In this document: piece by piece, positions 42,459-62,979 of the stretch
Layout: the number at the start of each line of letters is the position of its first letter
How positions within the stretch are numbered: position 1 is the first letter of the stretch
Source: Bacteroidota bacterium
GTDB lineage: Bacteria; Bacteroidota; Bacteroidia; Flavobacteriales_F; PHOS-HE28
Length of the DNA: 64,000 bases
NCBI GenBank assembly: GCA_014584605.1
Contig: JACTMO010000053.1
Coordinates: 89,792 to 153,791 of the forward strand
Direction of reading: 5' to 3'
Position numbers and translations under genes: made by a program
Notes under the pieces: generated by a model
What the model was told of the DNA's origin: nothing
What the model saw: only the letters and a program-made list of their open reading frames with translations
The model's database searches: none

Positions 42459-43646
42459 TCAACGGATGATGTTCACGGTGTTGCTGAAGATCTTGGCCCG
42501 GCCCGCCAGGTCCACCACCTCCACGGCATAAAGGTAGGTCCCACTGGGGCAGGGCTGGCCGTGCAGATCGTTACCGTCCCAAGGACGAAGGTCGTTGGCC
42601 GAGTACACCATCGAACCATTGGTGCTGCTGAAGATCCGCACGGCCACACGTTGATATTGGCTGCCCTGCGGTACCCATTGTTCGTTCTCCCCATCGCCGT
42701 TGGGGGTGAACACATTGGGGATGAAGAGCACGGGCTCGGGGACGGCCGTTCCCCCGGCCTCCGGTCCAGGCTCGGGTACCAGCACCTCGACAGGGCTCCG
42801 TGCAGCCTCAGGCGTGCGGTCCTTGCCGTGGGACAGCTCGTGCAGCACCTCCTCCACGACCTGCCTGCCCGCAGGGTCCGGTACGGCCTCCATCGTCCGT
42901 TGTGCGACCTGTACGGAGGCGGCGACCGCTTCGGATGTCGGGGCATCGGATCCGGCGACCTGCGCCGGTGCGGGGTCGGTGGACACCATGTGTTCCTGCG
43001 CGGTCGTGGCGGCGCCATCGGTCGTTGCCCCCTCGGGTTCGGCGGGAAGCGTGACCGTTCGGGCGGGTTGGGGTGCGGCTGCCGGGGTGAGCACCGTGGC
43101 CTTCGGTCCTGGGGGCGCTCCGGCGTTGGCGGTGGGCGTGTCCGCGATCACCGGTGCGGTGACCACGGAGCGAGGGACGGGGTTCACCACCGGTGCCTTC
43201 ACCGCGACCGGTCCTGCACGGTGCTTGTCCGCCGCCAGGTACAGCCCGCCGACCAGCAACAAGGCCGCTGCACCACCGACCGCCCAACCCACCACGGAAC
43301 TGCCGCCAGGAATGGTCGCGCCCCGGCCCAGCTGACCTTCGATGGCGGTCCATGCGGAGTTCGGTACGGCCGCCTCATGACCGGCGAAGCGCTCGCGCAA
43401 CAGGCTGTTCACCGGATCGGCCTGGCCCACCCGTTGTTCGATGGCCCCCCAACTGGCGGGGTCCACCGCGACCTCGTGGTCGGCGAAGCGCTCGCGCAGC
43501 AGCCCGCAGATCGGGTCGGTACCTACGGCGGCCATGGCCGTCCGGGTGCGGATCGCCTCCCACACCCCGCGTGGTACGGCCATCTCATGGTCGGCGAAGC
43601 GCTCGCGCAGGGTCCGGGTCAGTTCATCCTTCCGCTCCATCGCCAT
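42459..43646 (-). CDS. Single-pass membrane protein, anti-sigma-factor-like: cytoplasmic triple repeat, TM helix, Pro/Ala-rich linker, T9SS type-B CTD
   Basis: Immediately downstream of, and overlapping, the ECF sigma gene. Three ~23-aa repeats 'LLRERFADHE(M/V)AV...W.AI'. TM 'VVGWAVGGAAALLLVGGLYLAA'. Low-complexity P/A/T linker. C-terminal 'IPNVFTPNGDGENEQWVP...VRIFSSTNGSMVYSANDLRPWDGNDL...GTYLYAVEVVD...NIIR'. Confidence 0.6.
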   Translation of the reverse strand: MAMERKDELTRTLRERFADHEMAVPRGVWEAIRTRTAMAAVGTDPICGLLRERFADHEVAVDPASWGAIEQRVGQADPVNSLLRERFAGHEAAVPNSAWTAIEGQLGRGATIPGGSSVVGWAVGGAAALLLVGGLYLAADKHRAGPVAVKAPVVNPVPRSVVTAPVIADTPTANAGAPPGPKATVLTPAAAPQPARTVTLPAEPEGATTDGAATTAQEHMVSTDPAPAQVAGSDAPTSEAVAASVQVAQRTMEAVPDPAGRQVVEEVLHELSHGKDRTPEAARSPVEVLVPEPGPEAGGTAVPEPVLFIPNVFTPNGDGENEQWVPQGSQYQRVAVRIFSSTNGSMVYSANDLRPWDGNDLHGQPCPSGTYLYAVEVVDLAGRAKIFSNTVNIIR

Positions 43647-44181
43647 AGATGTCGGCCGCCTCCTTGGGCAGCAGTTTGCGCAGGTAGGCGCGTGCTTTCA
43701 TGAACTGGCTCTTCGAGGTGTTCTCGCTGATCCCCATCATCTCGCTGATCTCCTTGTGGGCGTAGCCTTCGATGGCGAAGAGGTTGAACACCGCCCGGTA
43801 TCCCGGGGGCAGGGCCTGGATCAGTTCCATGAGCTCATCGGTGCTCATCTGGCCAAGCACTTGGGCATCCTCGCTGTGCAGGTGCTCGGCCTCGGTGAGG
43901 TCCAGGCTGTGGTCGTAGGGCTTGTTCCGCCGGATGTGGTCCAAGGCGGTGTTCACCATGGTGCGGGCGATCCACCCCCCCAGCGGACCATCGCCGCGGT
44001 AGTGGTCCATTTTCTGGAACACCTTAACGAACCCGTCCTGCAGGATGTCCTGGGCCTGTTCACGCCCCGGGGCGTACCGCATGCAGATGCTCATCATCTT
44101 CCGGGCGTAGCAACGGTAGAGCTCCTTCTGGGCCAGGGGGTCGCCCTGGAGGCATCCGTTCACGAGCTGTTCGTCGGTCAT
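43624..44181 (-). CDS. RNA polymerase ECF-type sigma-70 factor
   Basis: Region 2 'ELYRCYARKMMSICMRYAPGREQAQDILQDGFVKVF' and region 4 'LPPGYRAVFNLFAIEGYAHKEISEMMGISENTSKSQ'. ATG at 44179-44181; the tracked ORF begins with TTG at 44208. Confidence 0.9.
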   Translation of the reverse strand: MTDEQLVNGCLQGDPLAQKELYRCYARKMMSICMRYAPGREQAQDILQDGFVKVFQKMDHYRGDGPLGGWIARTMVNTALDHIRRNKPYDHSLDLTEAEHLHSEDAQVLGQMSTDELMELIQALPPGYRAVFNLFAIEGYAHKEISEMMGISENTSKSQFMKARAYLRKLLPKEAADIYGDGAEG

Positions 44182-44383
44182 GTGTGGCGCACCAAAGCCG
44201 TTCAACAAAAGGTGCTTCCGGGTGGAATGATGCGATCCGCCCCCGAAAAGTTGCCCGGCCCCTGCAAGTTAGGGCACCGGCCCGGGTCCGGGGAAGCCGA
44301 CCGCCGGACTTCGCACCGACCGTCGGCCCCTTCGGCCAACGCCGCCTTACCTTCGTGCGTCCCAGAAGACAACAGAACCGAAC

Positions 44384-45013
44384 ATGAAGACCGCGATCGC
44401 GATCTCCGCCATGGCCTTGCTGGGCATGGCGCCGCACGACGAATTGAAGGACCTGAACCTGGGCGACCCGCTGCCCATGCCCGACCACCGCATGCTGGAC
44501 GTGGGCGGCCAGGAGAAGAGCCTGCGGGAACTGGCCGGCCGCAATGGCCTGTTGGTGATCTTCACCTGCAACACCTGCCCCTTCGTGGTGGGCACCGAGG
44601 ACAGCGAAGGCTGGGAGGGGCGTTACCCCGGGCTGGGCGTTTTTGCCCGGCAGCACGGGGTCGGCATGGCACTGGTGAACAGCAACGAGGCCAAGCGCAC
44701 GGCGGGCGATGGGTATGAGGACATGCGGAAACGGTACGAGGAGAAGGGCTACAACCATTACTACCTGCTGGACACGGGCCACCAGGTGGCCGATGCCTTC
44801 GCGGCCCGCACCACGCCTCATGTGTTCCTGTTCGACAAGGACCTCAAACTGGTGTACAAGGGTGCGGTGGACGACCGCGTGGAGAAGGCGGCCGACGTGA
44901 AACAGCCCTTCGTGCGCAACGCCATCACCAACCTGGCCGAAGGCCGCACGATCGATCCGACGGTGACGCGCAACATCGGGTGCAGCATCAAGCGGGTGGA
45001 GCACACGCACTGA
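44384..45013 (+). CDS. Thioredoxin-fold (redoxin/AhpC-TSA-like) protein
   Basis: 'LLVIFTCNTCPFV' CxxC in a thioredoxin-fold context; 'TPHVFLFDKDLKLVYKGAVDD'. Confidence 0.7.
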   Translation: MKTAIAISAMALLGMAPHDELKDLNLGDPLPMPDHRMLDVGGQEKSLRELAGRNGLLVIFTCNTCPFVVGTEDSEGWEGRYPGLGVFARQHGVGMALVNSNEAKRTAGDGYEDMRKRYEEKGYNHYYLLDTGHQVADAFAARTTPHVFLFDKDLKLVYKGAVDDRVEKAADVKQPFVRNAITNLAEGRTIDPTVTRNIGCSIKRVEHTH

Positions 45014-47700: not shown

Positions 47701-48390
47701 ATGAAGTGCGGCGTCGTCATCTTCCCGGGCTCCAACTGCGACGAGGACATGGTGCAGGTGCTGGAGGCCCAGGGCGGCGGTCCGGTCGAGCGGCTTTGGC
47801 ACAAGGAGCACGACCTGCGGGGCTGCGACCTGGTGGTGCTGCCCGGCGGCTTCAGCTACGGGGACTACCTGCGTTCGGGGGCCATCGCGCGGTTCTCGCC
47901 CATCATGCAGGAGGTGGCGGCCCATGCCGAACGCGGCGGGCTCGTGCTGGGGGTGTGCAACGGGTTCCAAGTGCTGTGCGAAGCGGGACTGCTGCCCGGA
48001 GCGCTGCTGCACAACGGGGGCCAGCGCTTCATCTGCCGCAACGTGCACATCACGCCGGCCACCAAGCGCACCGCGCTCACACAGGCCATCGCGCGCAAGG
48101 TGCTCACCATCCCCATCGCGCACGGCGAGGGCCGCTACCACATCGATGCCGCCGGCCTCAAGCGCCTGAAGGACGGCGACCAGGTGCTCTTTCGCTATTG
48201 CGATGCCGAAGGGAATGTGCACGAGGAGGCCAACCCCAACGGCAGCATGGACCACATCGCGGGCGTGTGCAACGAAGGCCGGAACGTGTTCGGCATGATG
48301 CCCCATCCGGAGCGTGCGGCCGATGCCCTGCTGGGCAACACCGACGGCATGGCGCTGTTCACCGGGCTCCTAAAGGCCGTCGCCGTCTGA
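47701..48390 (+). CDS. purQ: Phosphoribosylformylglycinamidine synthase subunit PurQ (glutaminase)
   Basis: '[17 protein letters not shown]', '[20 protein letters not shown]', '[11 protein letters not shown]', 'MPHPER' are class I GATase/PurQ signatures. Confidence 0.9.
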
Positions 48391-50418
48391 GACCACCGGC
48401 ATCAGGAGCGGCCGCACCTTCCGGTCCCCGGCGGGGTCCGCCCACGCCCCCGCAGCATCCTCCCGGCACCCTTCCCAGCCCAGGAGCCGCATGCCCGGCG
48501 CGGGCAACGCCTCCAACCGCAGGGGTGCGCCCGCGAAGCCGGTGATGCTGTGCCGGCCCGGCGGGAGCACGATGCCGTCGAGCAGCACGGTCCCTTGGGC
48601 ATTTTCCGGGACCAGGACGGAGACGGTGCCCAAGGAGGTGCCCGTGAACCGGGCCAGATGGCGCAGCAGATGTCCGGGCCGGCGCAGGGCGTGGACGCGC
48701 AGGTCGGCGTGGCTCTCTTCCGGGGTGGGCATGGCCATGCGACGGTGCCAGAGGGCGTGGTCGGCGCGCATCAGCGCGGCATGCGCCGCGAACAGGCTGT
48801 CGGCCAGCGCGGCGGCAGGGGCGGGTGCCAGCACGGTGGCCAGGAGCGTGGCCGTTCGCGCCAGCAGCAGCGGGCGCAACTGCGGATGGTCCAACAGGGC
48901 GGACAGGTATGGGGCGGCCGGGAGCGGCGCCTGGGCGATGCGGCTTGCCGAGGGGTCCTCCGGTGGGGCCCACAGGTCCATGTCGTACAGCACCCAGCGC
49001 CACCGGCCTCCGGGCTGTGCGGGGCGCCAGCAGCGCATGTTCAGGTCGTGGTCGGCACGGCCGGACCACAGGTCGAAACAGGCCAGTTCGATCAGGCTTC
49101 CGAGGTCGATGAAGACCTCCAGACTGTCGAGCGGTGCGCGTCGCGCCAAAAGGTCCAGGGCCCGTTCATAGGGCGCACGGTCGCCTTTCACCACGCGCCC
49201 CTCGGGACCCTCCACGATGTCCAGATGTTCGGCCTCGGTCAGGGACAGCAGAAAGTCCTCGTTCTTGGCGGGCATCAGCCGATAGGTCCCCTGCGGAACA
49301 CCGTTGAGCGTAAGCGGCAACGGGGTGCCTGGCTGCACATCGAGGCGGTCGCCGGCGCGGTGCACGCTCACCTCGGCGAACAGGTTGCGCAGCAAGGCGT
49401 GCGGGGTGGCGTCGGCACGCAGCACCACGTTGCGCCAGGTGCTGCCATCGGGCAGGGGCAGGCTGCGCGTGCCGTCGGTGGCGCTGAGGTTGAACGAACG
49501 CTTGGGCAAGCCGCGCGAGCCGGAGCCCGAGAGGCGAAGGCGCACGGCCGAGGCAGCGGTATCCACCATGCCGGGCAGAGCGACCTTTGCGGGCCGTACC
49601 CAGGCCGGGCCGGTACGGACATGGTTGGCGCGGTCGCCTTCGATCATCAATCCGCGCCGGGGGTCGAACAGCTCCGGCGGGTTGATGCAGAGCGAAGCGC
49701 CCGAACCAGGGGCTTTCTGTCCCTGCACCCAGGTCTCGGCGCTCGCGAGCAGGTCGGCGCGCCAGGCCACCGCCCGCACGGTGCGGTTCTCCGGAAGGGC
49801 CATCGGGCCGGTGACCACGGTGCCATGGCCGGGGGAGGGCGGGCTGCCGTCGGTGGTGCAGGTCACCGTGCAGCCGTTGCAGGCGTTGAGCACGAGACCG
49901 CCCATCGTGCGTTGTGCCACGGGGGCCGGTGCCCGGCCCCGGATGGGCTGTGCGGCCCGGTTGGGCGCTTCCGGTCCCGGGTCGGTGAGAAAGCTCCAGG
50001 TGCCCGCCCCGTCGGGCAGGCGACCGATGGAGACCCCGGGCGGCACGCTGGGCCAGCGGAAGGCATCGAGCATGCGGCGACCATCCGCACCGAAGAGCAG
50101 CAGATCGCCACCGGCCGCAGGCAGGTGCATCAGAGCGCCTTCCCCATCGCTCCGACCCCGCACCACCACCATGCGATGCCGACCCGGAGGCAGGAGCGGC
50201 TGCTCCTGCAGCACCACCCGGAATGGTTCGCGGACCAGGAGCATGCCGTGAAGGTCCACGGGTACCGTATCGGCATTGAAGAGCTCCACCCAGCCGCTGT
50301 CCGCCGGATGCACCATGGGCAGCACCTCGTTGATCCGCACGGCCTGGGCCTGTGCGATGAGACCGGACCCCCACATCAGCAGGGCCGCCATGGCGTGGCG
50401 GGGCAGGCGTTGGCACAT
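48370..50418 (-). CDS. Secreted lamin-tail-domain (LTD) protein, CotH-like
   Basis: Signal peptide '[26 protein letters not shown]'. LTD signature 'VRINEVLP...DSGWVELFN'. The large central domain is of CotH-like type (tentative). Confidence 0.5.
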
Positions 50419-50670
50419 CGGGCCAAAGTTGGCATGGCGCGGAGCATGCTGCCGCAAGTATCGGTTAACACGGCTGCCGCCGGTCCTGCTTACGGAGCCG
50501 GTGCGCAGGAAGCGGTCGATCCCGGCATCGGACAGGGGCGTGAAGAAGTGTGGAGGTGAGGATGGCCAGGGCTTTCAGCTTCCTTACGTCCTCACCTCTT
50601 CACCGGAACAGGTTGGATCTTCGTTGCCGCTTCAGTAACTTGCCCACGCTCCGAACGCCACTACGTCTCC

Positions 50671-52062
50671 ATGCGCAACACGACCCTGCTTCTTCTATCC
50701 GGCCTTGCCATCAGCGCCATGGGCCAGGGCACGATCACCAGTGTACAGATCACCCCGAGCACGCTCACCGAATGCACGTTCATGAACGTGACGGTGATCG
50801 GCACCATCCCCGGGAACGCCCAGGTGACGGGTTTCGTCCCGGGGCAGAACGGGAACAACATCACCATCGTGTTGACCGCCTCGGGCACGGGAGGCGGAAC
50901 GGGATCGTTCAACCAGCCGTTGCCGCCCCTGGGCCCGTACACCGCCGGGACCTACAACGTGCAGATCTCGCTGGAGCTGAACGGCACCATCACGGATACC
51001 GAGACGCTTCAGCGCACCGTGCAGCCGGGCGTGAACCCTGACGCGGGCACGGATGCCTCGGTCTTGGGGGTGTGCGACACGGACCCCAATTTCCTGTTGA
51101 TCAATGAACTGGGTGGTTCGCCCGACCCCGGAGGGGTGTGGACCAACCCGCTGAACCAGCCGCACAGCGGCAATTTCAACCCGGGCACCGATCCGGGCGG
51201 GTTCTACCTGTACACCATCGAGGCCCTGGCCCCGTGCAGCACCGTGCAGAGCAGCGTGTACGTGGAATACGCGCCCAACAGCGATCCCGGTGACGATGGC
51301 GCGGTGACCGTGTGCGTGAACGGGGCTCCGATCGACCTGTTCGCCAACCTGCAGGGCACCCCGGAGACCGGTGGCACGTGGAGCGGCCCCAGTCCGGTGG
51401 TGAACGGCCAGTACGACCCGGCCACGATGACGCCCGGAGCCTACGTGTACACGGTGCAGGGCATGGGCAACTGCGGCAACCCCTCGGCCACGGTGACCGT
51501 GAGCGAGGCGAACCTGCCCAACGCCGGCACGGCCGTGCCCATCACGGCCTGCGCCACGGACACCAGCCTGACGCTCAGTACCGGGCTCACGGGTAATCCC
51601 TTGCAAACGGGCGTGTGGCTCGATCCGCTCGGTTTTCTGCTCGGGCCCTACAACGTGGTCATCAACCCGTCCATCTACGGTGCCGGCAACCACAACTTCC
51701 GCTACGTGGCCACCAACACCTTCTGCCCCAACGACACCACCACGGTGCCGGTGACCCTGCTGGCCGCACCGTGCGGCATCAGCGTGCAGGAGATCGCCGC
51801 CGGCGTGACGCGATTCAAGGTAATGCCCAACCCGGCCCGCGAACGCGCCACGGTGGAGCTGAGCCTTGCCGCGGGCATGGGTGCGGTGCGGCTGGAGTTG
51901 CTCGGCACCGACGGCCGTTCCGTGCGTCGGGAGCGGCTGGCCGGCAGCGGCCGCACCGAACTGCGCCACGACCTCGACCTCGGCGGGCTCGAGGCAGGCA
52001 CCTACCTGCTGCGCCTCACCACGGACCGTGGGAACGTGGCGCGGACCCTGGTGGTGGAATAA
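50671..52062 (+). CDS. Secreted T9SS type-A CTD protein (Ig-like repeats)
   Basis: Signal peptide 'MRNTTLLLLSGLAISAMGQ'. C-terminal 'FKVMPNPARERATVELS...GTYLLRLTTDRGNVARTLVVE'. Confidence 0.7.
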   Translation: MRNTTLLLLSGLAISAMGQGTITSVQITPSTLTECTFMNVTVIGTIPGNAQVTGFVPGQNGNNITIVLTASGTGGGTGSFNQPLPPLGPYTAGTYNVQISLELNGTITDTETLQRTVQPGVNPDAGTDASVLGVCDTDPNFLLINELGGSPDPGGVWTNPLNQPHSGNFNPGTDPGGFYLYTIEALAPCSTVQSSVYVEYAPNSDPGDDGAVTVCVNGAPIDLFANLQGTPETGGTWSGPSPVVNGQYDPATMTPGAYVYTVQGMGNCGNPSATVTVSEANLPNAGTAVPITACATDTSLTLSTGLTGNPLQTGVWLDPLGFLLGPYNVVINPSIYGAGNHNFRYVATNTFCPNDTTTVPVTLLAAPCGISVQEIAAGVTRFKVMPNPARERATVELSLAAGMGAVRLELLGTDGRSVRRERLAGSGRTELRHDLDLGGLEAGTYLLRLTTDRGNVARTLVVE

Positions 52063-57300: not shown

Positions 57301-57912
57301 TCAGGGCTTCACGGGCCGCGGTCGGTCGTCCCCGGCCAGGGTCCAGCCGCCGTTCTCCACCACGGCGCGCAGCACCACCAGGAACTCCTCCTTCTGCTTG
57401 GCGGCGGCTTCGAAGAGCCCGCTCTGCGGCAGCCGTTGCTCGATGCGGGCCTTGGCCTGGGCCTGCATGCGGGTGTGGTCCGCGGCGCTGAAATCGGCGA
57501 AGGCCCCCTCCTGCAGGTCGAAATACTTCACGTCGTGCTCCAGGGCCAGGAGCTTCGGTGCGTCCATGCCGGTGAGGCGCACCGTGCGCGTGGCCTCGTC
57601 GAAGGAGAGCCCCAGCCCGTCCAGGTCGTAGCCCACCGAGGCGCGGGCCTTCACCAGCAGGATGGCCTGCTTGCGGTTCCAGCCCATGTTCCTGGTCCAG
57701 TCGAACCACGCCGCGCTGTTGTCGCTGTAGGTGAACACTTCGCTGAGGTCGCCCTCCACCGTCACCAGCTTCAGCACCGGGCGGATGCGCTCCAGCAACA
57801 CGGTCTCCGTCACCTGTTCGGCCGGTGCGTCGGGCCGGTACGCCTCGCGGGTGAGGAAGAAGACCAGCAGGGCCACGCCCAACAGGAGCAGGAGACCGGT
57901 GGTGCGTTTCAT
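57301..57912 (-). CDS. DUF4230-domain protein (N-terminal TM anchor)
   Basis: 'MKRTTGLLLLLGVALLVFFLTRE' anchor followed by a soluble DUF4230-like domain. Its 5' end and upstream region are duplicated at 59854-59995. Confidence 0.6.
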   Translation of the reverse strand: MKRTTGLLLLLGVALLVFFLTREAYRPDAPAEQVTETVLLERIRPVLKLVTVEGDLSEVFTYSDNSAAWFDWTRNMGWNRKQAILLVKARASVGYDLDGLGLSFDEATRTVRLTGMDAPKLLALEHDVKYFDLQEGAFADFSAADHTRMQAQAKARIEQRLPQSGLFEAAAKQKEEFLVVLRAVVENGGWTLAGDDRPRPVKP

Positions 57913-57953
57913 GGTGCGGTGGCAAAGGTGGCACGGCGGCGCCGTAAGTCGCC
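57812..57953. repeat. Direct repeat copy 1 (~140 bp; the central ~100 bp is near-identical to 59854-59995)
   Basis: Aligned by eye: 57850-57950 versus 59892-59992 differ at 1-2 positions, and the flanks are more diverged. Covers the DUF4230 start codon, about 33 codons of coding sequence, and ~40 bp upstream. Confidence 0.7.
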
Positions 57954-58032: not shown

Positions 58033-59814
58033 ATGAAGACAACGCAGACTTTGGCCGTGTCAATGGCCCTGGGCTCTCTATCATCCATGGCACAGAGCTT
58101 CGATCACTTGGATGCGAACATGATCCGGGCCCGATTCACGGCCCATGGCATGATCGGGCTTGATCGGAGCGTTGGCGAGCCGGATTTTGAGGTGCCCGTT
58201 GGAAGCGGGGCCCATGCGTTGTTCGCAGCCTCAATGTGGGTGGGTGGGTACGATACGCTTGGCAGCTTGCATCTTGCTGGCCTGCTGTTCGACCAGAACG
58301 GGCTGCCCGACTACGCCCCAGGACCGCTTACAACGGACGGCAGCGCATCGATCACTCCGGCCGTGTCAGCCCAGTATGATCAAGTGTTCAAGGTCAAAGC
58401 CGTGGATGTTGCCCTGCACCAGGCCTACTACGATTGTTTGAACACGCCAGGATGCGATGTCAATGTTCAGTTCCCCGGGTATGTGATACCCCAGAGTTTT
58501 CTTGACTGGCCAGGGAACGGTGACACCTTGGCTGGTCAGGCCGCCCGGTTGGCGCCATTCATCGATCTTGATGGTGACGGGCTGTATGAGCCGACCGCCG
58601 GTGATGCACCATGCATCCACGGGGATGAAGCACTCTATTTCATGTTCAATGATGTGCTGAACCCGCATGGCACGGGCGGTGCTCCCCTTGGTATCGAGGT
58701 CCATGCCATGCCCTTCGCATTCTATTCCGCCAACGAGGCACTCGCGCACACGCTCTTCATCAAGTACCGGCTCATCAATCGAAGCGATGACTCCTTTGAA
58801 ATGGTCCGCATTGGTCTGTTCACTGACTATGACCTTGGATATGGTCGTGATGACTACGTGGGCTCTGATCCCGGAAGGAATCTCGGCTACGTGTACAACG
58901 CGGATACGCTGGATGAAACGACATCAACCTATACCGGATATGGGTCGATGCCACCCGCTTTTGGGACAACGCAGCTCAAAGGTCCGTTCCTGGAGCCTGA
59001 TGGGTTTGACGATCCCGAAGGACCGGGTATACCCGCTTTCAATGGCTCTGGTTTTGGTGACCTGGTGGTCGACAATGAACGTCATGGTGTCGCGTACATG
59101 ACCTACTTCAGCAATGACGCCACCGCCCGAGGCAATCCGAATACAGCCGAACAGTTCTTCGGTTATCTGAGCGGGTACTGGCGCGACGGAACACCGCTCT
59201 TCCATGGAGGCACTGGGCATTACTCCGATCCCGAGGCCACGACCGTTCCAGCGCGCTTTGCATTTCCAAGTTCTGAAGACCCACTTGGAGCGGGAACAGG
59301 TGGTCAGGTGATGGCTCCATGGGCGGAGCATTCATCAGGCAATCAACCGAGGGATAGGCGGATGGTCATGTCGGCCGGACCCGTGGAGCTGGATGCCGGA
59401 GAGGAGATCGAACTTGTCTACGCGTTCGTGTTCGCCCGCCCAGGATCCAATGGGCTGATGAGCAGCGTTCTGCGGCTACAGGAAAGGGTGGATTCGGTAC
59501 AGGCTTTTTACAATGATCTGCCGGAGGCGTGCAACGGAGCGGGATCTCAGGTGGGTTTGGAGGAACACACAGACCGTGGACCAATCGTATTTCCCGTTCC
59601 GGCCGAAGATCGTCTGACCTTAAGGCTTGAGGTCCCCGGTCCAGTGGAATTGGTCGTGTACGATATGCTCGGCGTGGAGTGCTCGAGAGGGCGCGATACC
59701 GGGGATCTGATCCAGATCGACCTTTCGGAGCTTGGTCAAGGCTCGTATCTGTTGCATGTTGCTCAAGGCGAGGTGAGCCATGTTGTTCCGTTCATGAAGA
59801 TCACGACCAGATAG
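58033..59814 (+). CDS. Secreted T9SS type-A CTD protein of unknown function, with markedly lower GC than its surroundings
   Basis: Signal peptide 'MKTTQTLAVSMALGSLSSMAQS'. C-terminal 'IVFPVPAEDRLTLRLEVPGPVELVVYDMLG...GSYLLHVAQGEVSHVVPFMKITTR'. Third-codon positions are visibly less G/C-rich (~55% GC by eye versus ~70% for flanking genes). Confidence 0.7.
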   Translation: MKTTQTLAVSMALGSLSSMAQSFDHLDANMIRARFTAHGMIGLDRSVGEPDFEVPVGSGAHALFAASMWVGGYDTLGSLHLAGLLFDQNGLPDYAPGPLTTDGSASITPAVSAQYDQVFKVKAVDVALHQAYYDCLNTPGCDVNVQFPGYVIPQSFLDWPGNGDTLAGQAARLAPFIDLDGDGLYEPTAGDAPCIHGDEALYFMFNDVLNPHGTGGAPLGIEVHAMPFAFYSANEALAHTLFIKYRLINRSDDSFEMVRIGLFTDYDLGYGRDDYVGSDPGRNLGYVYNADTLDETTSTYTGYGSMPPAFGTTQLKGPFLEPDGFDDPEGPGIPAFNGSGFGDLVVDNERHGVAYMTYFSNDATARGNPNTAEQFFGYLSGYWRDGTPLFHGGTGHYSDPEATTVPARFAFPSSEDPLGAGTGGQVMAPWAEHSSGNQPRDRRMVMSAGPVELDAGEEIELVYAFVFARPGSNGLMSSVLRLQERVDSVQAFYNDLPEACNGAGSQVGLEEHTDRGPIVFPVPAEDRLTLRLEVPGPVELVVYDMLGVECSRGRDTGDLIQIDLSELGQGSYLLHVAQGEVSHVVPFMKITTR

Positions 59815-59844: not shown

Positions 59845-59955
59845 TCACCCCTCCACCTCCTCGGCCGGTGGCGCGGGCCGGTACACCTCGCGGGTGATGA
59901 AGAAGACCAGCAGGGCCACGCCCAACAGGAGCAGGAGACCGGTGGTGCGTTTCAT
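59845..59955 (-). pseudogene. Truncated duplicate of the DUF4230 N-terminus (36 codons), inside direct repeat copy 2
   Basis: Encodes 'MKRTTGLLLLLGVALLVFFITREVYRPAPPAEEVEG*', compared with the intact gene's 'MKRTTGLLLLLGVALLVFFLTREAYRPDAPAEQVTE...'. Confidence 0.5.
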
Positions 59956-59995
59956 GGTGCGGTGGCAAAGGTGGAACGGCGGCGCCGATACCTTT
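59854..59995. repeat. Direct repeat copy 2
   Basis: See copy 1. Confidence 0.7.
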
Positions 59996-60000
59996 GGCCG

Positions 60001-60597
60001 ATGCGCCACGGATGGCTGTTCTCCACGTGCGTCGTGGGTCTTCTGTTGGCCGGATGCGGCGCAGCGTCCCGTGTGGACCTGGACACGCTGCGGACCATGG
60101 AGCACCGGCTCGCGGATGGCGCGGTCGTGGCGGGTCGATCGCTTTTCGGTGCGGGCCACACCTTGGTGCTGACCCTGGATCCCGAGTGCCCGCTCTGCCT
60201 GATGCACGCGCCCGAGCTGGCCACGCTGGTGCCCGATGATGGGCTGCACATCGTGGGGCTGTATGCGTCGCCCTACATTGTCCCCGACAGCGCGCGGGCC
60301 TTCGCCGAACGGAACGGGTTCCGCTTTCCGCAGGTGATGGACCCTGCGTGTGCGATCGCGCAGGCGTTGGATGCGGTGGTCACCCCCGAGGCGTTCCTCC
60401 TGGCGGCGGACGGCACGGTGCTGTACCGTGGCGCCATCGACGATCGCGCACAGCGGGCCGGGCGCAAGAAGCCCGAGGCCACCCGCCATCATCTGCGCGA
60501 TGCGCTCGCGGCCGTGCGGCGGGGTGAACGTCCTGCTGCGGCCCATGTGCGGGCCGTGGGCTGCTTTCTGGAATGCACGGAAGTGGAGGTGCCATGA
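60001..60597 (+). CDS. TlpA-like thiol-disulfide oxidoreductase / redoxin lipoprotein
   Basis: Lipobox 'WLFSTCVVGLLLAGCG'. 'TLVLTLDPECPLCLMHAPEL' is a CxxC thioredoxin-fold motif. ATG at 60001. Confidence 0.65.
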   Translation: MRHGWLFSTCVVGLLLAGCGAASRVDLDTLRTMEHRLADGAVVAGRSLFGAGHTLVLTLDPECPLCLMHAPELATLVPDDGLHIVGLYASPYIVPDSARAFAERNGFRFPQVMDPACAIAQALDAVVTPEAFLLAADGTVLYRGAIDDRAQRAGRKKPEATRHHLRDALAAVRRGERPAAAHVRAVGCFLECTEVEVP

Positions 60598-61988
60598 GGG
60601 AGATGGCCATCATCGTGGTCCTTGCGGCCTGGTTGGCCCTACTGCCCGGCTGTGGTCCGGTGGACCCGGTGGATGCGGTGACGGACCTGCCCGACACGGT
60701 GACCTTCGCCGACCACATCGCCCCGCTGGTGCGCAGCCATTGCATGCCGTGCCACAGCCCTGGGCATGCCGGCCCCTTCGCGCTCATCACCTACGGGGAT
60801 GTGCGGCGCAAGGCGCGCACCGTGGGGCATGTGACGCGCCAGCGGTTCATGCCGCCATGGCCGGCGGACACCACCTACAGCCGGTTCGTGGGCGAGCGGG
60901 TGCTCACGGCACGGCAGATCGCGCTCATCGGGAAATGGGTGGAGCAAGGCATGCCGCCGGGCGACACGGCTGCGCTGCCCCCGATGCCTGTTGTCCAGGA
61001 GGCCGGAGGGCTGGGCCCGCCGGACCTGGTGGTGCCGGTGTCGGGCACCTGCACCATCCCGGGCGATGGGCGGGACCGCTTCATCATCGCCAAGGCGCCC
61101 TTCGAGCTGGTGCGGGACACCTTCCTGCGGGCGGTGGCCTTCGTGCCGGGGAACCGCCGCCTGGTGCACCACATGAACGGCGCGCTCATCAACTACCCGG
61201 AAGGGGCCAAGGCCGACGTGTTCGCCGGGTCGGGACCGATCGACGCCGAGCAGCTGGGCGGTCCGCCGGCCTTCGCGCAACTGGGCCTGGCCAACGACGA
61301 TGGCAGCTGGCCGCCCCTGGTGCCCAGCGTGGTGAACTACCTCCCCGGCCTGGCACCGCTGGTGCTGCCCGAGGGACTGGGCGGTCTGTATCTGGCGCGC
61401 AAGGGCGCCTTCCTGCTGAACACGGTGCACTATGGCCCCAGCGACCGGGAGGCTACCGACCGGAGCAGCTTCCACCTGTGGTTCGCGCGCCGCGCGCCGG
61501 AACGCCCGTTGCAGGAGCTTGCCATGGGCAGCACGCACACCCCCGTGGTCCCACCGCTGCACCTGGAACCCGGCGAGGTGCGCACCTTCAGCACCCGGCT
61601 CACCGTGCCCAAGGCGATCAGCGTGCTGGCCGTGAACCCCCACATGCACCTGCTGGGCACCCGCTTCAAGGCCTATGCACTGCGCGGTGCGGACACCATC
61701 CCGCTGGTGCGCATCCTGGATTGGGATTTCCGCTGGCAGTACAGCTACACCTTCCGGCATCCGGTCCCGCTGCGTGCCGGGGATGTCCTCGTGGCCGAGG
61801 GCAGCTTCGACAACAGTGCGGAGAACCCGGACCAGCCCTTTGACCCCCCGCGCGAAGTGCAGGGCCGTGACAGCCGGTTCATGCGCACCACCGACGAGAT
61901 GTTCCAGTTCTTCGTCACCTATGTGGACTGGAGGGCGGGGGATGAGAGCCTGCCATTGAGTGCGGTCGATCCATCCGTCGGCAAGTGA
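60594..61988 (+). CDS. Lipoprotein with an N-terminal heme-c motif (CxxCH) and a PHM/DBH-like type-2 copper monooxygenase-like domain
   Basis: Lipobox 'LAAWLALLPGCG'. 'HCMPCHSPGHAGPF' (CxxCH). Candidate Cu ligands 'LVHHMNG' (HH), 'NPHMHLLG' (HxH) and 'TDEMFQF' (Met), in the order seen in peptidylglycine monooxygenase-like proteins. The start overlaps the upstream redoxin gene by 4 nt. Confidence 0.5.
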   Translation: MREMAIIVVLAAWLALLPGCGPVDPVDAVTDLPDTVTFADHIAPLVRSHCMPCHSPGHAGPFALITYGDVRRKARTVGHVTRQRFMPPWPADTTYSRFVGERVLTARQIALIGKWVEQGMPPGDTAALPPMPVVQEAGGLGPPDLVVPVSGTCTIPGDGRDRFIIAKAPFELVRDTFLRAVAFVPGNRRLVHHMNGALINYPEGAKADVFAGSGPIDAEQLGGPPAFAQLGLANDDGSWPPLVPSVVNYLPGLAPLVLPEGLGGLYLARKGAFLLNTVHYGPSDREATDRSSFHLWFARRAPERPLQELAMGSTHTPVVPPLHLEPGEVRTFSTRLTVPKAISVLAVNPHMHLLGTRFKAYALRGADTIPLVRILDWDFRWQYSYTFRHPVPLRAGDVLVAEGSFDNSAENPDQPFDPPREVQGRDSRFMRTTDEMFQFFVTYVDWRAGDESLPLSAVDPSVGK

Positions 61989-62064
61989 CGTACGGCGGCC
62001 GGGCGCACAGGACCGGCGACCCGTTGCGGTGCAGGCACGCGATGGCCCAGGGCGAGCCGGCGGC

Positions 62065-62979
62065 TCACGCCTGCGCCAGGGGATCCGGTCCGGTGACCTC
62101 GCTCGCACGCTTGCCGCGCTGCAGCCAGCCGTTGATGAAGAGGCAGCCGAGGATGAGGGCGAAGCCCAGGTAGGAACCCACGGTGAGCTTCTCCTCCGCG
62201 CCCCAGATGAGCAGCGCGAAGATGATGGTGTACACCGGCTCCAGGTTCACGGTGAGCATCACGGTGAAGGGGCTGAGCTGCCGCATGACCGCGATGCCGG
62301 CCACGAAGGCGAAGGTGGTGCACACCAGGCCCAGCAGCAGTTGGTAGATGATGTCGCTGGTCGGCAACTGCCAGAGCGCTGGCGCCAGATCACCCGTGAC
62401 AAGGCCGTAGAGCGCCAGGGCCGCCACCACGCTCAGCATCTCGTAGAAGCCGATGCGCAGGGCGTTGTCGCGCTGCACCAGCACCCCGTTCACCACGTTG
62501 AACCAGGCGCTGAGCAGGGCGCTGAGGGTGGCCACGGCGATGCCCAGGCGGTGCTGCACCTCCAGCCCGAAGATGAGCAGCAGGGCGGCCACCACCACGA
62601 TGCCCAGAACGACCTCGCTCACACGGATGCGGCGCTTGAACCAGAAGGGCTCCATGAGCGCAGTGAACACCGTGCTGGTGCTGAGGCAGGCGGCGGCGAT
62701 GCTGGCGGTGCTCAGCTTGATGGCGCCGTAGAAGGTGATCCAGTGCCCCAGGATGATGAGGCCCACCAGCAGGTAGTTCGCCAGGCCCGGGGTGCGCGGC
62801 GATAGGCTCCTGCGCGTGGCCAGCGCCACCACGGCAAGTCCCAACGCGCCGATCACCGTGCGCGTGTACACCAGGTGCAGGGTGGGCTGCTGGATCAGCT
62901 TGCCCAGGATGCCCGTGAAGCCCCACACGAACACCGTGACGTGCAGCAGCACGAGCGCATTGCGTTGGGCCTTGGGCAT
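62065..62979 (-). CDS. EamA/DMT-family transporter
   Basis: 10 TM helices in a duplicated 5+5 arrangement. Start at ATG 62977-62979 (MPKAQRNALVLLH). Confidence 0.8.
   Translation of the reverse strand: MPKAQRNALVLLHVTVFVWGFTGILGKLIQQPTLHLVYTRTVIGALGLAVVALATRRSLSPRTPGLANYLLVGLIILGHWITFYGAIKLSTASIAAACLSTSTVFTALMEPFWFKRRIRVSEVVLGIVVVAALLLIFGLEVQHRLGIAVATLSALLSAWFNVVNGVLVQRDNALRIGFYEMLSVVAALALYGLVTGDLAPALWQLPTSDIIYQLLLGLVCTTFAFVAGIAVMRQLSPFTVMLTVNLEPVYTIIFALLIWGAEEKLTVGSYLGFALILGCLFINGWLQRGKRASEVTGPDPLAQA

Follow-up and report, generated by a model that had tools for sequence, protein, structure and literature searches.

Peptidylglycine alpha-hydroxylating monooxygenase (PHM) and dopamine beta-hydroxylase (DBH) are the textbook non-coupled binuclear copper monooxygenases, and they are treated as eukaryotic and ascorbate-dependent. 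PHM (a domain of PAM; structures 1phm, 1opm and 3mll) has a core of two jelly rolls, in which the copper ligands occur in the order HHM, VHYG, H-x-H-x-x-G and DEM. The same copper ligands are found in DBH, tyramine beta-monooxygenase and MOXD1 (4zel). A recent fold survey continues to present PHM as widespread among eukaryotes (PMC8812541). We analyzed a stretch of 64,000 nucleotides from a Bacteroidota bacterium (assembly GCA_014584605.1, contig JACTMO010000053.1, positions 89,792 to 153,791 of the forward strand), hereafter called the window, and studied two overlapping genes in it. Gene 1 (60001-60597, + strand) encodes a thioredoxin-fold lipoprotein of 198 amino acids with a signal peptide, a redoxin of the PRX-like1 type. 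Gene 2 (60594-61988, + strand) encodes a lipoprotein of 464 amino acids, in which a c-type cytochrome domain precedes a PHM/DBH-like two-domain copper core. All features of the two genes given below lie on the + strand. We found that the C-terminal two thirds of the gene 2 protein are genuinely homologous to the PHM and DBH catalytic core, with the same two-jelly-roll core, ligand sets and ligand order as PHM. Our favored reading, which we hold tentatively, is that the gene pair forms a periplasmic PHM-type monooxygenase in which heme, and probably the redoxin too, would replace ascorbate.

Sequence profiles and the modelled fold both led to PHM and DBH. The Pfam model of the C-terminal copper domain, Cu2_monoox_C (PF03712), matched residues 343-418 of the gene 2 protein with 29.9 bits, over its cut-off of 23 (E 4.6e-7). 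The N-domain model, PF01082, did not match the gene 2 protein at E<=0.1. Among the 94 top representatives of the family it reached E<=1e-3 in eight (best E 1.2e-10), and in ten relatives that were scanned singly it always stayed under the 30-bit cut-off. Of the two copper-domain models named in an earlier note on this DNA, which had been written from the letters alone, PF03712 thus passed its threshold and PF01082 did not match. Cytochrome_CBB3 was sub-threshold on the gene 2 protein (17 bits, cut-off 27). No NCBIfam model matched the protein. As a single sequence searched against the PDB sequences with phmmer, the gene 2 protein gave no match, and a narrow profile of 69 closer homologues gave a spurious match only. 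We also aligned 125 diverse representatives with 29-51% identity to the query. The profile of this wider alignment reached DBH (E 1.6e-11, the best profile match) and PHM (E 2.8e-11) by sequence, and it spanned residues 12-273 of PHM and residues 182-430 of DBH.

An AlphaFold2 model of the gene 2 protein was built on the 69 homologues. Its predicted local distance difference test score (pLDDT) was 89.3 and its predicted template modelling score (pTM) 0.85. When the model was compared with the PDB by Foldseek, the 31 best matches comprised only PHM and human DBH (E 4.5e-13 to 4.6e-9, probability 1.00; E 2.3e-12 for 4zel). These matches extended over about 330-350 columns, with a TM score of about 0.6 on the PHM length and 16-18% identity. 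Beyond PHM and DBH, Foldseek gave only weak matches to double-jelly-roll viral capsid proteins, whose common fold with PHM is known (PMC8812541).

In the profile of the 125 representatives, all six copper ligands of PHM were aligned with a ligand of the gene 2 protein. The N-terminal jelly roll with the CuH site covers about residues 140-300 (61011-61493), as placed by profile alignment to PHM and DBH. In its motif VHHMNG (residues 191-196, 61164-61181), H192 and H193 (61167-61172) correspond to H107 and H108 of PHM (vvHHall against tvHHMLL). The third CuH ligand, H172 of PHM, corresponds to H279 in VHYG (61428-61430; lqvHy against LQVHYGD). The C-terminal jelly roll with the CuM site covers about residues 301-450 (61494-61943) according to Cu2_monoox_C and the profile alignment. 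It contains NPHMHLLG (residues 348-355, 61635-61658), where H350 and H352 of the H350-M-H352 segment (61641-61649) match H242 and H244 of PHM (aPHmHllGk against RVHTHHLGK). It also contains TDEMFQF (residues 433-439, 61890-61910), where M436 of TDEM (61899-61901) matches M314, the CuM methionine of PHM (ttdEMl against SSDEMCNLY). Among the 125 representatives, C50, C53, H54, M86, H193, H350, H352, E435 and M436 were invariant, and H192 and H279 were conserved in at least 90%. Among the 69 closer homologues, C50, C53, H54, M86, H192, H193, H350, H352 and M436 were invariant and H279 was again conserved in at least 90%.

The earlier note had described overlapping reading frames, two lipoproteins, a CMPCH motif and HHM, HxH and Met motifs, all of which we found at the same positions. 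Its suggestion that the His/Met pattern follows the order of the CuH and CuM sites also held, since the order agrees residue for residue with PHM and is conserved in the homologues (69 and 125). The fold it had supposed was returned by the Foldseek search of the model, and neither a mismatch of fold nor a loss of ligand conservation was seen.

The copper part also has features of its own. The segment WDFRWQ (61722-61739) is specific to the family, does not occur in PHM or DBH and is a candidate element of the substrate pocket. Among the 125 representatives its W377, F379 and W381 were conserved in at least 90% and Q382 was invariant, in a region that aligns poorly with PHM. In both alignments the CuM half carries the invariant family motifs WDFxWQxxY and DNxxxNPxNPxxPP. 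We also searched the gene 2 protein by regular expression for HHM-x2-F-x-C and H-x-F-x4-H-T-H-x2-G, which we take to be the PROSITE-type patterns of copper type II monooxygenases. Only HHM and H-M-H-L-L-G were found, and the F-x-C and the upstream H-x-F parts were missing. Membership of the PHM/DBH superfamily is therefore supported by the fold, the C-domain model and all of the ligands, while the strict signatures, the disulfides and the substrate residues of PHM are not retained.

His/Met copper sites in periplasmic lipoproteins recall copper-tolerance proteins. The gene 2 protein might then handle copper without catalysis, by sequestration, sensing or Cu(I) oxidation on a PHM scaffold. We regard this as most improbable: the exact catalytic ligands and the pocket motifs of the family are kept among relatives at about 30% identity to the query, the relatives in non-ribosomal peptide synthetase (NRPS) clusters point to tailoring, and no cop or cus genes lie nearby, where the neighbors are DnaG, polyprenyl synthase, DUF4230, EamA and DUF502.

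The N-terminal third of the gene 2 protein is, as judged from its motifs and the model, a mono-heme c-type cytochrome, with predicted covalent heme and probable ligation by M86. It follows the lipobox LLPGC (60639-60653), whose Cys20 is invariant in the 69 homologues. The domain covers about residues 34-125 (60693-60968), and it is small and helical in the model (helices at residues 38-49, 51-54, 67-72, 74-82 and 106-117). The heme-c attachment motif CMPCH (residues 50-54, 60741-60755), with C50, C53 and H54, is invariant in both alignments. The likely distal heme ligand, M86, lies in MPPWPAD (60849-60869), and M86 and P87 are both invariant in the 125 representatives. Cytochrome_CBB3 scored 34.1 and 37.1 bits, as whole-protein scores, on P0124 and P0132, two relatives with the same module.

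The heme domain separates gene 2 from the known enzymes. Compared with PHM, the gene 2 protein is a bacterial lipoprotein with an added N-terminal c-type cytochrome domain, and its pairing with a redoxin would stand in the place of ascorbate dependence. In DBH the N-terminal accessory domain is a DOMON domain, whereas in the gene 2 protein it is a cytochrome with predicted covalent heme c. The gene 2 protein is also prokaryotic and periplasmic and lacks the dimerization domain of DBH. Overall, our confidence is high that gene 2 encodes a PHM-type copper/heme protein, in which both the heme and the copper sites would be occupied. A cytochrome c fused to a copper domain is known from subunit II of caa3 oxidases, where it is an efficient intramolecular donor and passes electrons to CuA (PMC5668878). 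We took it as the model for the proposed step from heme to CuH. The analogy is one of wiring only, since the copper fold of caa3 is a cupredoxin unrelated to gene 2, and caa3 is a membrane complex that reduces O2.

The two genes are joined by an ATGA overlap (60594-60597), in which the TGA of gene 1 (60595-60597) overlaps the ATG of gene 2 (60594-60596), an arrangement that points to translational coupling. An alternative ATG for gene 2 at 60573, which would give 471 amino acids, was rejected because the N-termini of homologues disagree with it; for example, P0002 has 464 amino acids at 100% coverage. Of 80 Bacteroidota loci, 57 had a redoxin gene directly upstream of the gene for the cytochrome c/PHM-like protein. 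In related loci the junction was commonly an overlap of 3-24 nt and otherwise a gap of a few nucleotides. Moreover, the same redoxin subfamily was fused to the module in 31 of the 150 best family representatives (21%; profile E 1e-48 to 1e-14). The redoxin was mostly N-terminal, and in three proteins (P0223, P0243 and P0202) it was C-terminal. In P0132 (1251 amino acids) the whole redoxin/cytochrome c/PHM-like unit is tandemly duplicated in one polypeptide. A natural fusion from Planctomycetota was modelled as one compact three-domain body (pLDDT 90.5, pTM 0.86). Four unfused variants were also checked, two with domains of the type IX secretion system (T9SS), one with TPR and one with two modules and EF-hands, and the redoxin gene was upstream in all four. 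The dedicated thiol-disulfide partner that the earlier note had supposed is thus supported both by adjacency with stop/start overlap and by natural fusions.

The class of this partner is another matter. By its sequence, gene 1 is a PRX-like1-type redoxin whose conserved cysteines are C63 and C188, and not the pair of a CxxC motif. The stretch that comprises its signal peptide and lipobox is MRHGWLFSTCVVGLLLAGC. The lipobox LLAGC (60043-60057), as read from the sequence, predicts lipidation at Cys19 (60055-60057). Two Pfam models matched over their cut-offs, AhpC-TSA with 29.1 bits and Redoxin with 27.9 bits. The closest relatives in the PDB were 2cvb (E 2.4e-11), 2ywi and 3u5r (to E 1.5e-8), which we take to be PRX-like1 proteins (cd02969). 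With these solved proteins (2cvb and 2ywo from Thermus, 2ywi from Geobacillus and 3u5r from Sinorhizobium) gene 1 shares the CP, the TPE loop with its cis-Pro, Y-x-G-x-[IV]-D-D and [IV]GC. They were stand-alone targets of structural genomics, whereas the subfamily of gene 1 consists of lipoproteins or domains dedicated to a cytochrome c/PHM-like enzyme.

The earlier note had called the redoxin TlpA-like, and we found otherwise. The scores for TlpA-type proteins were weak (CycY E 0.015, ResA E 0.64), BCP was also marginal, and the dsbE model TIGR00385 gave 16.9 bits against a cut-off of 123. We rejected the TlpA/ResA/DsbE class for gene 1 on the basis of these scores and of the unconserved second cysteine of the CxxC. 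Gene 1 has the thioredoxin fold, the membrane anchor and the periplasmic location in common with TlpA, ResA and CcmG (DsbE), and it does contain a CPLC. However, its family conserves a distal C-terminal cysteine and not the second cysteine of the CxxC. The CxxC described in the earlier note is present in gene 1, at the active site CPLC (60187-60198; C63 and C66), but the family as a whole does not conserve it. Among 50 Bacteroidota redoxins we found PxCP (C63, 98%), the TPE loop, YxGxID and AVGC (C188, 100%), and C66 was only partly conserved. In gene 1 the AVGC lies at 60553-60564, and its C188 is a candidate resolving or second redox cysteine. Fused redoxins and separate redoxins of other subfamilies carry CP[IV]S together with a distal Gly-Cys (GC) motif. 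Instead of the second cysteine of the CxxC, Ser, Ala, Asn or Arg occurs in most of 32 fused domains and also in the unfused redoxins encoded at variant loci. The GC motif was present in 29 of the 32 aligned fused domains (from 31 proteins) and also in 2cvb, 2ywi and 3u5r. In the N-terminal fusions, the cysteine of this motif lies about 20-45 residues (mostly about 25) ahead of the CxxCH.

Cyanobacterial PRX-like1 proteins have been described as hypothetical proteins of unclear structure and mechanism, in a study that also found a putative C-terminal triad in PRX-like1 and gives a different second cysteine motif, AACTPDF, for the cyanobacterial proteins (PMC3514251). The window contains another PRX-like1 gene, a stand-alone paralogue at 44384-45013 (+) with 28% identity to the operon redoxin. 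It carries FTCNTCPFV, YKGAVDD and IGCSIK, and it lies beside, and divergent from, a gene for an ECF sigma factor (43624-44208, -).

The cysteines of the redoxin have to be weighed under two other explanations. First, the redoxin could be a peroxiredoxin-like scavenger, with C63 as peroxidatic and C188 as resolving cysteine, which guards the copper enzyme, or the module could detoxify periplasmic peroxide. Assays of PHM and DBH classically require catalase, and protection would be directed at the H2O2 or superoxide from uncoupled turnover. The match to AhpC-TSA is in line with this, and the C-terminal cysteine of 2ywi has been compared to a resolving cysteine (PMC3091736). However, the gene 1 motif is LDPECPLC, with xxCPxS in its relatives, so that the family has PxCPxS/C and not the peroxidatic PxxxT/SxxC motif, with its catalytic Arg, of peroxiredoxins. 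A disulfide formed in this way would still want a reductant, and the scavenger reading gives no reason why a complete PHM-type site for O2 activation is so strictly conserved. It seemed to us that a scavenger is improbable.

Second, the electrons could run in the reverse direction. The redoxin would then oxidize envelope thiols, or one specific client, and be re-oxidized by the copper/heme protein acting as terminal oxidase, as in a sulfhydryl oxidase or disulfide relay. The electrons would go on to O2 or to a respiratory cytochrome c, in a flavin-free analogue of Mia40-Erv1-cytochrome c. The tight coupling of redoxin, heme and copper would fit such a relay, as would the self-contained nature of the module, which resembles a housekeeping function, and the lack of any linked substrate gene. 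The CPxC of gene 1 has Pro at the first x, as does the CxxC of DsbA. The family as a whole, however, shows CPxS with a distal cysteine instead of a DsbA-like CxxC, and we saw nothing that ties the presence of the module to the absence of DsbB or VKOR. In addition, the His2Met CuM site and the non-coupled layout of the two coppers are the hallmark of hydroxylation and not of an oxidase. We consider reversed flow very improbable, whether its electrons end on O2 or on a cytochrome. If true, a copper/heme disulfide relay would put the PHM scaffold to an entirely new purpose.

Our favored reading, a monooxygenase supplied by heme and probably by the redoxin, can be set out as follows. The CuH site, with three histidines, would serve in electron transfer, and the CuM site, with two histidines and a methionine, in O2 activation. 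The covalent heme would be a built-in one-electron relay that reduces CuH, in the place of the ascorbate (or cytochrome b561) of the animal enzymes. CuM would bind O2 and hydroxylate a C-H bond of the substrate, which is probably not a C-terminal glycine and does not appear to be encoded beside the operon. The redoxin would dock on the enzyme and most likely give two electrons per turnover through a disulfide, formed by C63 with C188 or C66. It would then be re-reduced by a thiol-reducing pathway of the envelope. PHM turnover takes two electrons, and one disulfide gives two. In the PilB protein of Neisseria (Trx-MsrA-MsrB), a periplasmic thioredoxin-like domain is fused to the MsrA/B enzyme that it recycles. 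The N-terminal domain of PilB was among the weak PDB matches of gene 1 (2fy6, 2jzr and 2h30). Its catalytic domains are metal-free and unrelated to gene 2, and the fusion is a precedent for a redoxin as donor. We infer which way the electrons flow, that the enzyme acts as a monooxygenase and what the redoxin does, with different degrees of confidence. Monooxygenase activity of the gene 2 protein, suggested by its aligned ligands and the model, is a claim of moderate confidence. The redoxin as electron donor is possible, but we remain doubtful of it.

Several observations weigh against this reading. The gene 2 protein has four cysteines, namely C20 in the lipobox, C50 and C53 at the heme and the unconserved C153, and the intradomain disulfides of PHM are absent. 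R240, N316 and Y318, which anchor peptidyl-glycine in PHM, are replaced by N348, Q438 and F440. As neither the disulfides nor these residues are kept, the chemistry could differ from hydroxylation. The loss of the anchors for the glycine carboxylate also argues against a PHM-like specificity, which is not to be assumed, and on this ground we rejected peptidyl-glycine as the substrate. Heme and a thiol donor together look redundant, and the heme might instead take electrons from respiratory cytochromes. To our knowledge, there is no characterized precedent for thiol-to-heme or thiol-to-copper transfer in a module of this kind. The PRX-like1 proteins themselves are uncharacterized (PMC3514251). 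In addition, the remaining 23 of the 80 loci had no adjacent redoxin, which was confirmed for 15 of them by searching the kilobase upstream with a profile. Finally, two variants with a C-terminal T9SS domain (L086 5299-7581 and L089 6450-8767) have the redoxin gene upstream, after a gap of 15 nt in L086 and with an overlap of 4 nt in L089. These redoxins carry an N-terminal hydrophobic anchor and look periplasmic. Since the presumably exported enzyme keeps a periplasmic-looking redoxin, one-off maturation fits these variants better than steady-state donation.

In the main rival reading, the redoxin would be a dedicated maturation factor and not a catalytic donor, and the enzyme would then be fed through its heme by soluble or respiratory cytochromes. 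It could keep the cysteines of the CxxCH reduced so that heme can be ligated, in the manner of ResA/CcsX, or load Cu(I) into CuH and CuM through C63 and C188, in the manner of Sco. The T9SS variants, which are expected to exit the periplasm and still retain the redoxin gene directly upstream, are in its favor. So is the short distance between the GC cysteine and the CxxCH in the N-terminal fusions, and loci without an adjacent redoxin are expected if general factors can substitute. In System II cytochrome c biogenesis the heme-binding cysteines are indeed kept reduced by a thiol module, CcdA with ResA/CcsX (PMC9145763). However, other c-type cytochromes of these bacteria need the general machinery only. 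Fusion of a factor to its client in 21% of the representatives, in either order, would be unusual. The redoxin also matches PRX-like1 proteins (E 1e-8 to 1e-11) far better than it does ResA, CcmG or TlpA (E 0.015-0.64), and the redoxin alignments show neither a conserved His nor a CxxxC like those of Sco. On balance, a maturation factor seems rather unlikely, though clearly less so than a scavenger.

The earlier note had considered a module of this kind unusual. This was not borne out, because the family search returned 11,406 clusters at 50% identity with E<=1e-3, of which 1,307 had E<=1e-30. Among the 94 top representatives, Cu2_monoox_C was found in 53, the N-domain model in eight, AhpC-TSA in 14, a T9SS sorting domain in 11, TPR in about five and EF-hands in three. 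The database names of relatives include 'hypothetical protein', 'cytochrome c', 'redoxin family protein', 'peroxiredoxin', 'TPR repeat protein' and 'copper type II ascorbate-dependent monooxygenase-like'. P0271 and P0272, which have two cytochrome c/PHM-like modules and EF-hands, are located in NRPS clusters on two independent metagenome contigs (L091 4476-10240 and L092 960-4217). These clusters encode condensation, adenylation, peptidyl carrier protein (PCP), sulfotransferase and thioesterase domains. Two genes precede the two-module relatives in L091, one for a redoxin and the other for a third paralogue with a single module. The NRPS-embedded relatives hint at tailoring chemistry in that subfamily.

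The substrate class has to be judged from such contexts. TPR fusions and NRPS contexts favor peptides or proteins, and the Trp/Asn-rich motifs together with T9SS export may leave room for glycans. We therefore considered a carbohydrate-oxidizing role like that of LPMO enzymes. Three points would agree with it, namely the family motifs rich in Trp and Asn, the variants with T9SS domains and a kinship with PNGase F, but we found no supporting polysaccharide-utilization context.

Clustering of reading frames in the 80 loci and eight further context look-ups revealed no third conserved gene, such as one for a substrate peptide, CcdA/DsbD or a copper chaperone. The neighbors there reflected lineage-specific synteny only, and the fused genes stand alone. 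Upstream of one T9SS variant, the region 1-5000 of L086/L087 contains genes for a DsbD-like protein (865 amino acids), an HTTM/vitamin-K-carboxylase-like protein and a fatty-acid hydroxylase. We took this DsbD gene for a probable coincidence; it lies about 5 kb off and was not seen in other loci. The sulfatase/FGE genes beside Planctomycetota fusions were likewise set aside as a probable coincidence.

In the window, the neighbors of the gene pair are DnaG, a MORN protein, polyprenyl synthase, DUF4230, an inserted T9SS gene, EamA, DUF502 and a YjbR-like reading frame. Here the start of the DUF4230 gene is present twice, as a direct repeat of 134 nt with 94% identity (57811-57944 and 59854-59987) that brackets 58033-59814. 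The stretch flanked by the repeat, about 2 kb long, is lower in GC, with a third-codon-position GC content (GC3) of 0.62, as against 0.81-0.89, and it encodes a T9SS C-terminal-domain protein of 593 amino acids. This gene occupies the same site in L001 and L002, with 92-93% protein identity where the flanking proteins have 74-84%, and it is absent in L003. It resembles a cassette that was acquired, or arose by recombination, in recent times and was inserted just ahead of the redoxin operon. Two further genes of the window are unrelated to the gene pair. One (48370-50457, -) encodes a CotH-kinase-like protein of 695 amino acids with chitobiase C-terminal and lamin-tail domains, and the other, adjoining it (50671-52062, +), encodes another T9SS C-terminal-domain protein. 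Both genes of the pair are also overlapped by long antisense reading frames (59845-60546, -, 233 amino acids; 60639-62108, -, 489 amino acids). The first of them has a GC3 of 0.79, near that of the redoxin frame (0.81). We took these frames to be shadows in a GC-rich genome (about 68% GC), because only the + strand genes are backed by homology.

In our literature search we found nothing on bacterial PHM/DBH homologues or on this architecture, a provisional result as the coverage of the search was incomplete. The enzyme scaffold is known, and the domain matches are already in databases. What is new is the bacterial setting, the predicted covalent heme and the PRX-like1 partner. A PHM/DBH core with all six copper ligands thus occurs in a very large bacterial family, where it is joined to a predicted c-type heme and paired with a thioredoxin-fold partner. 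The pairing provides a first functional context for PRX-like1 redoxins. Specialists in copper enzymes would be surprised by how large the family is and by its proposed wiring without ascorbate, and the family may be relevant to how the animal PHM and DBH enzymes arose in evolution. If the gene 2 protein is active, it would show how bacteria supply electrons to PHM chemistry without ascorbate, and the disputed transfer of electrons from CuH to CuM could be modelled in a soluble protein from a prokaryote. Activity would also point to new hydroxylations in the cell envelope, at the cell surface through its T9SS variants and in the tailoring of non-ribosomal peptides through its NRPS-linked variants.

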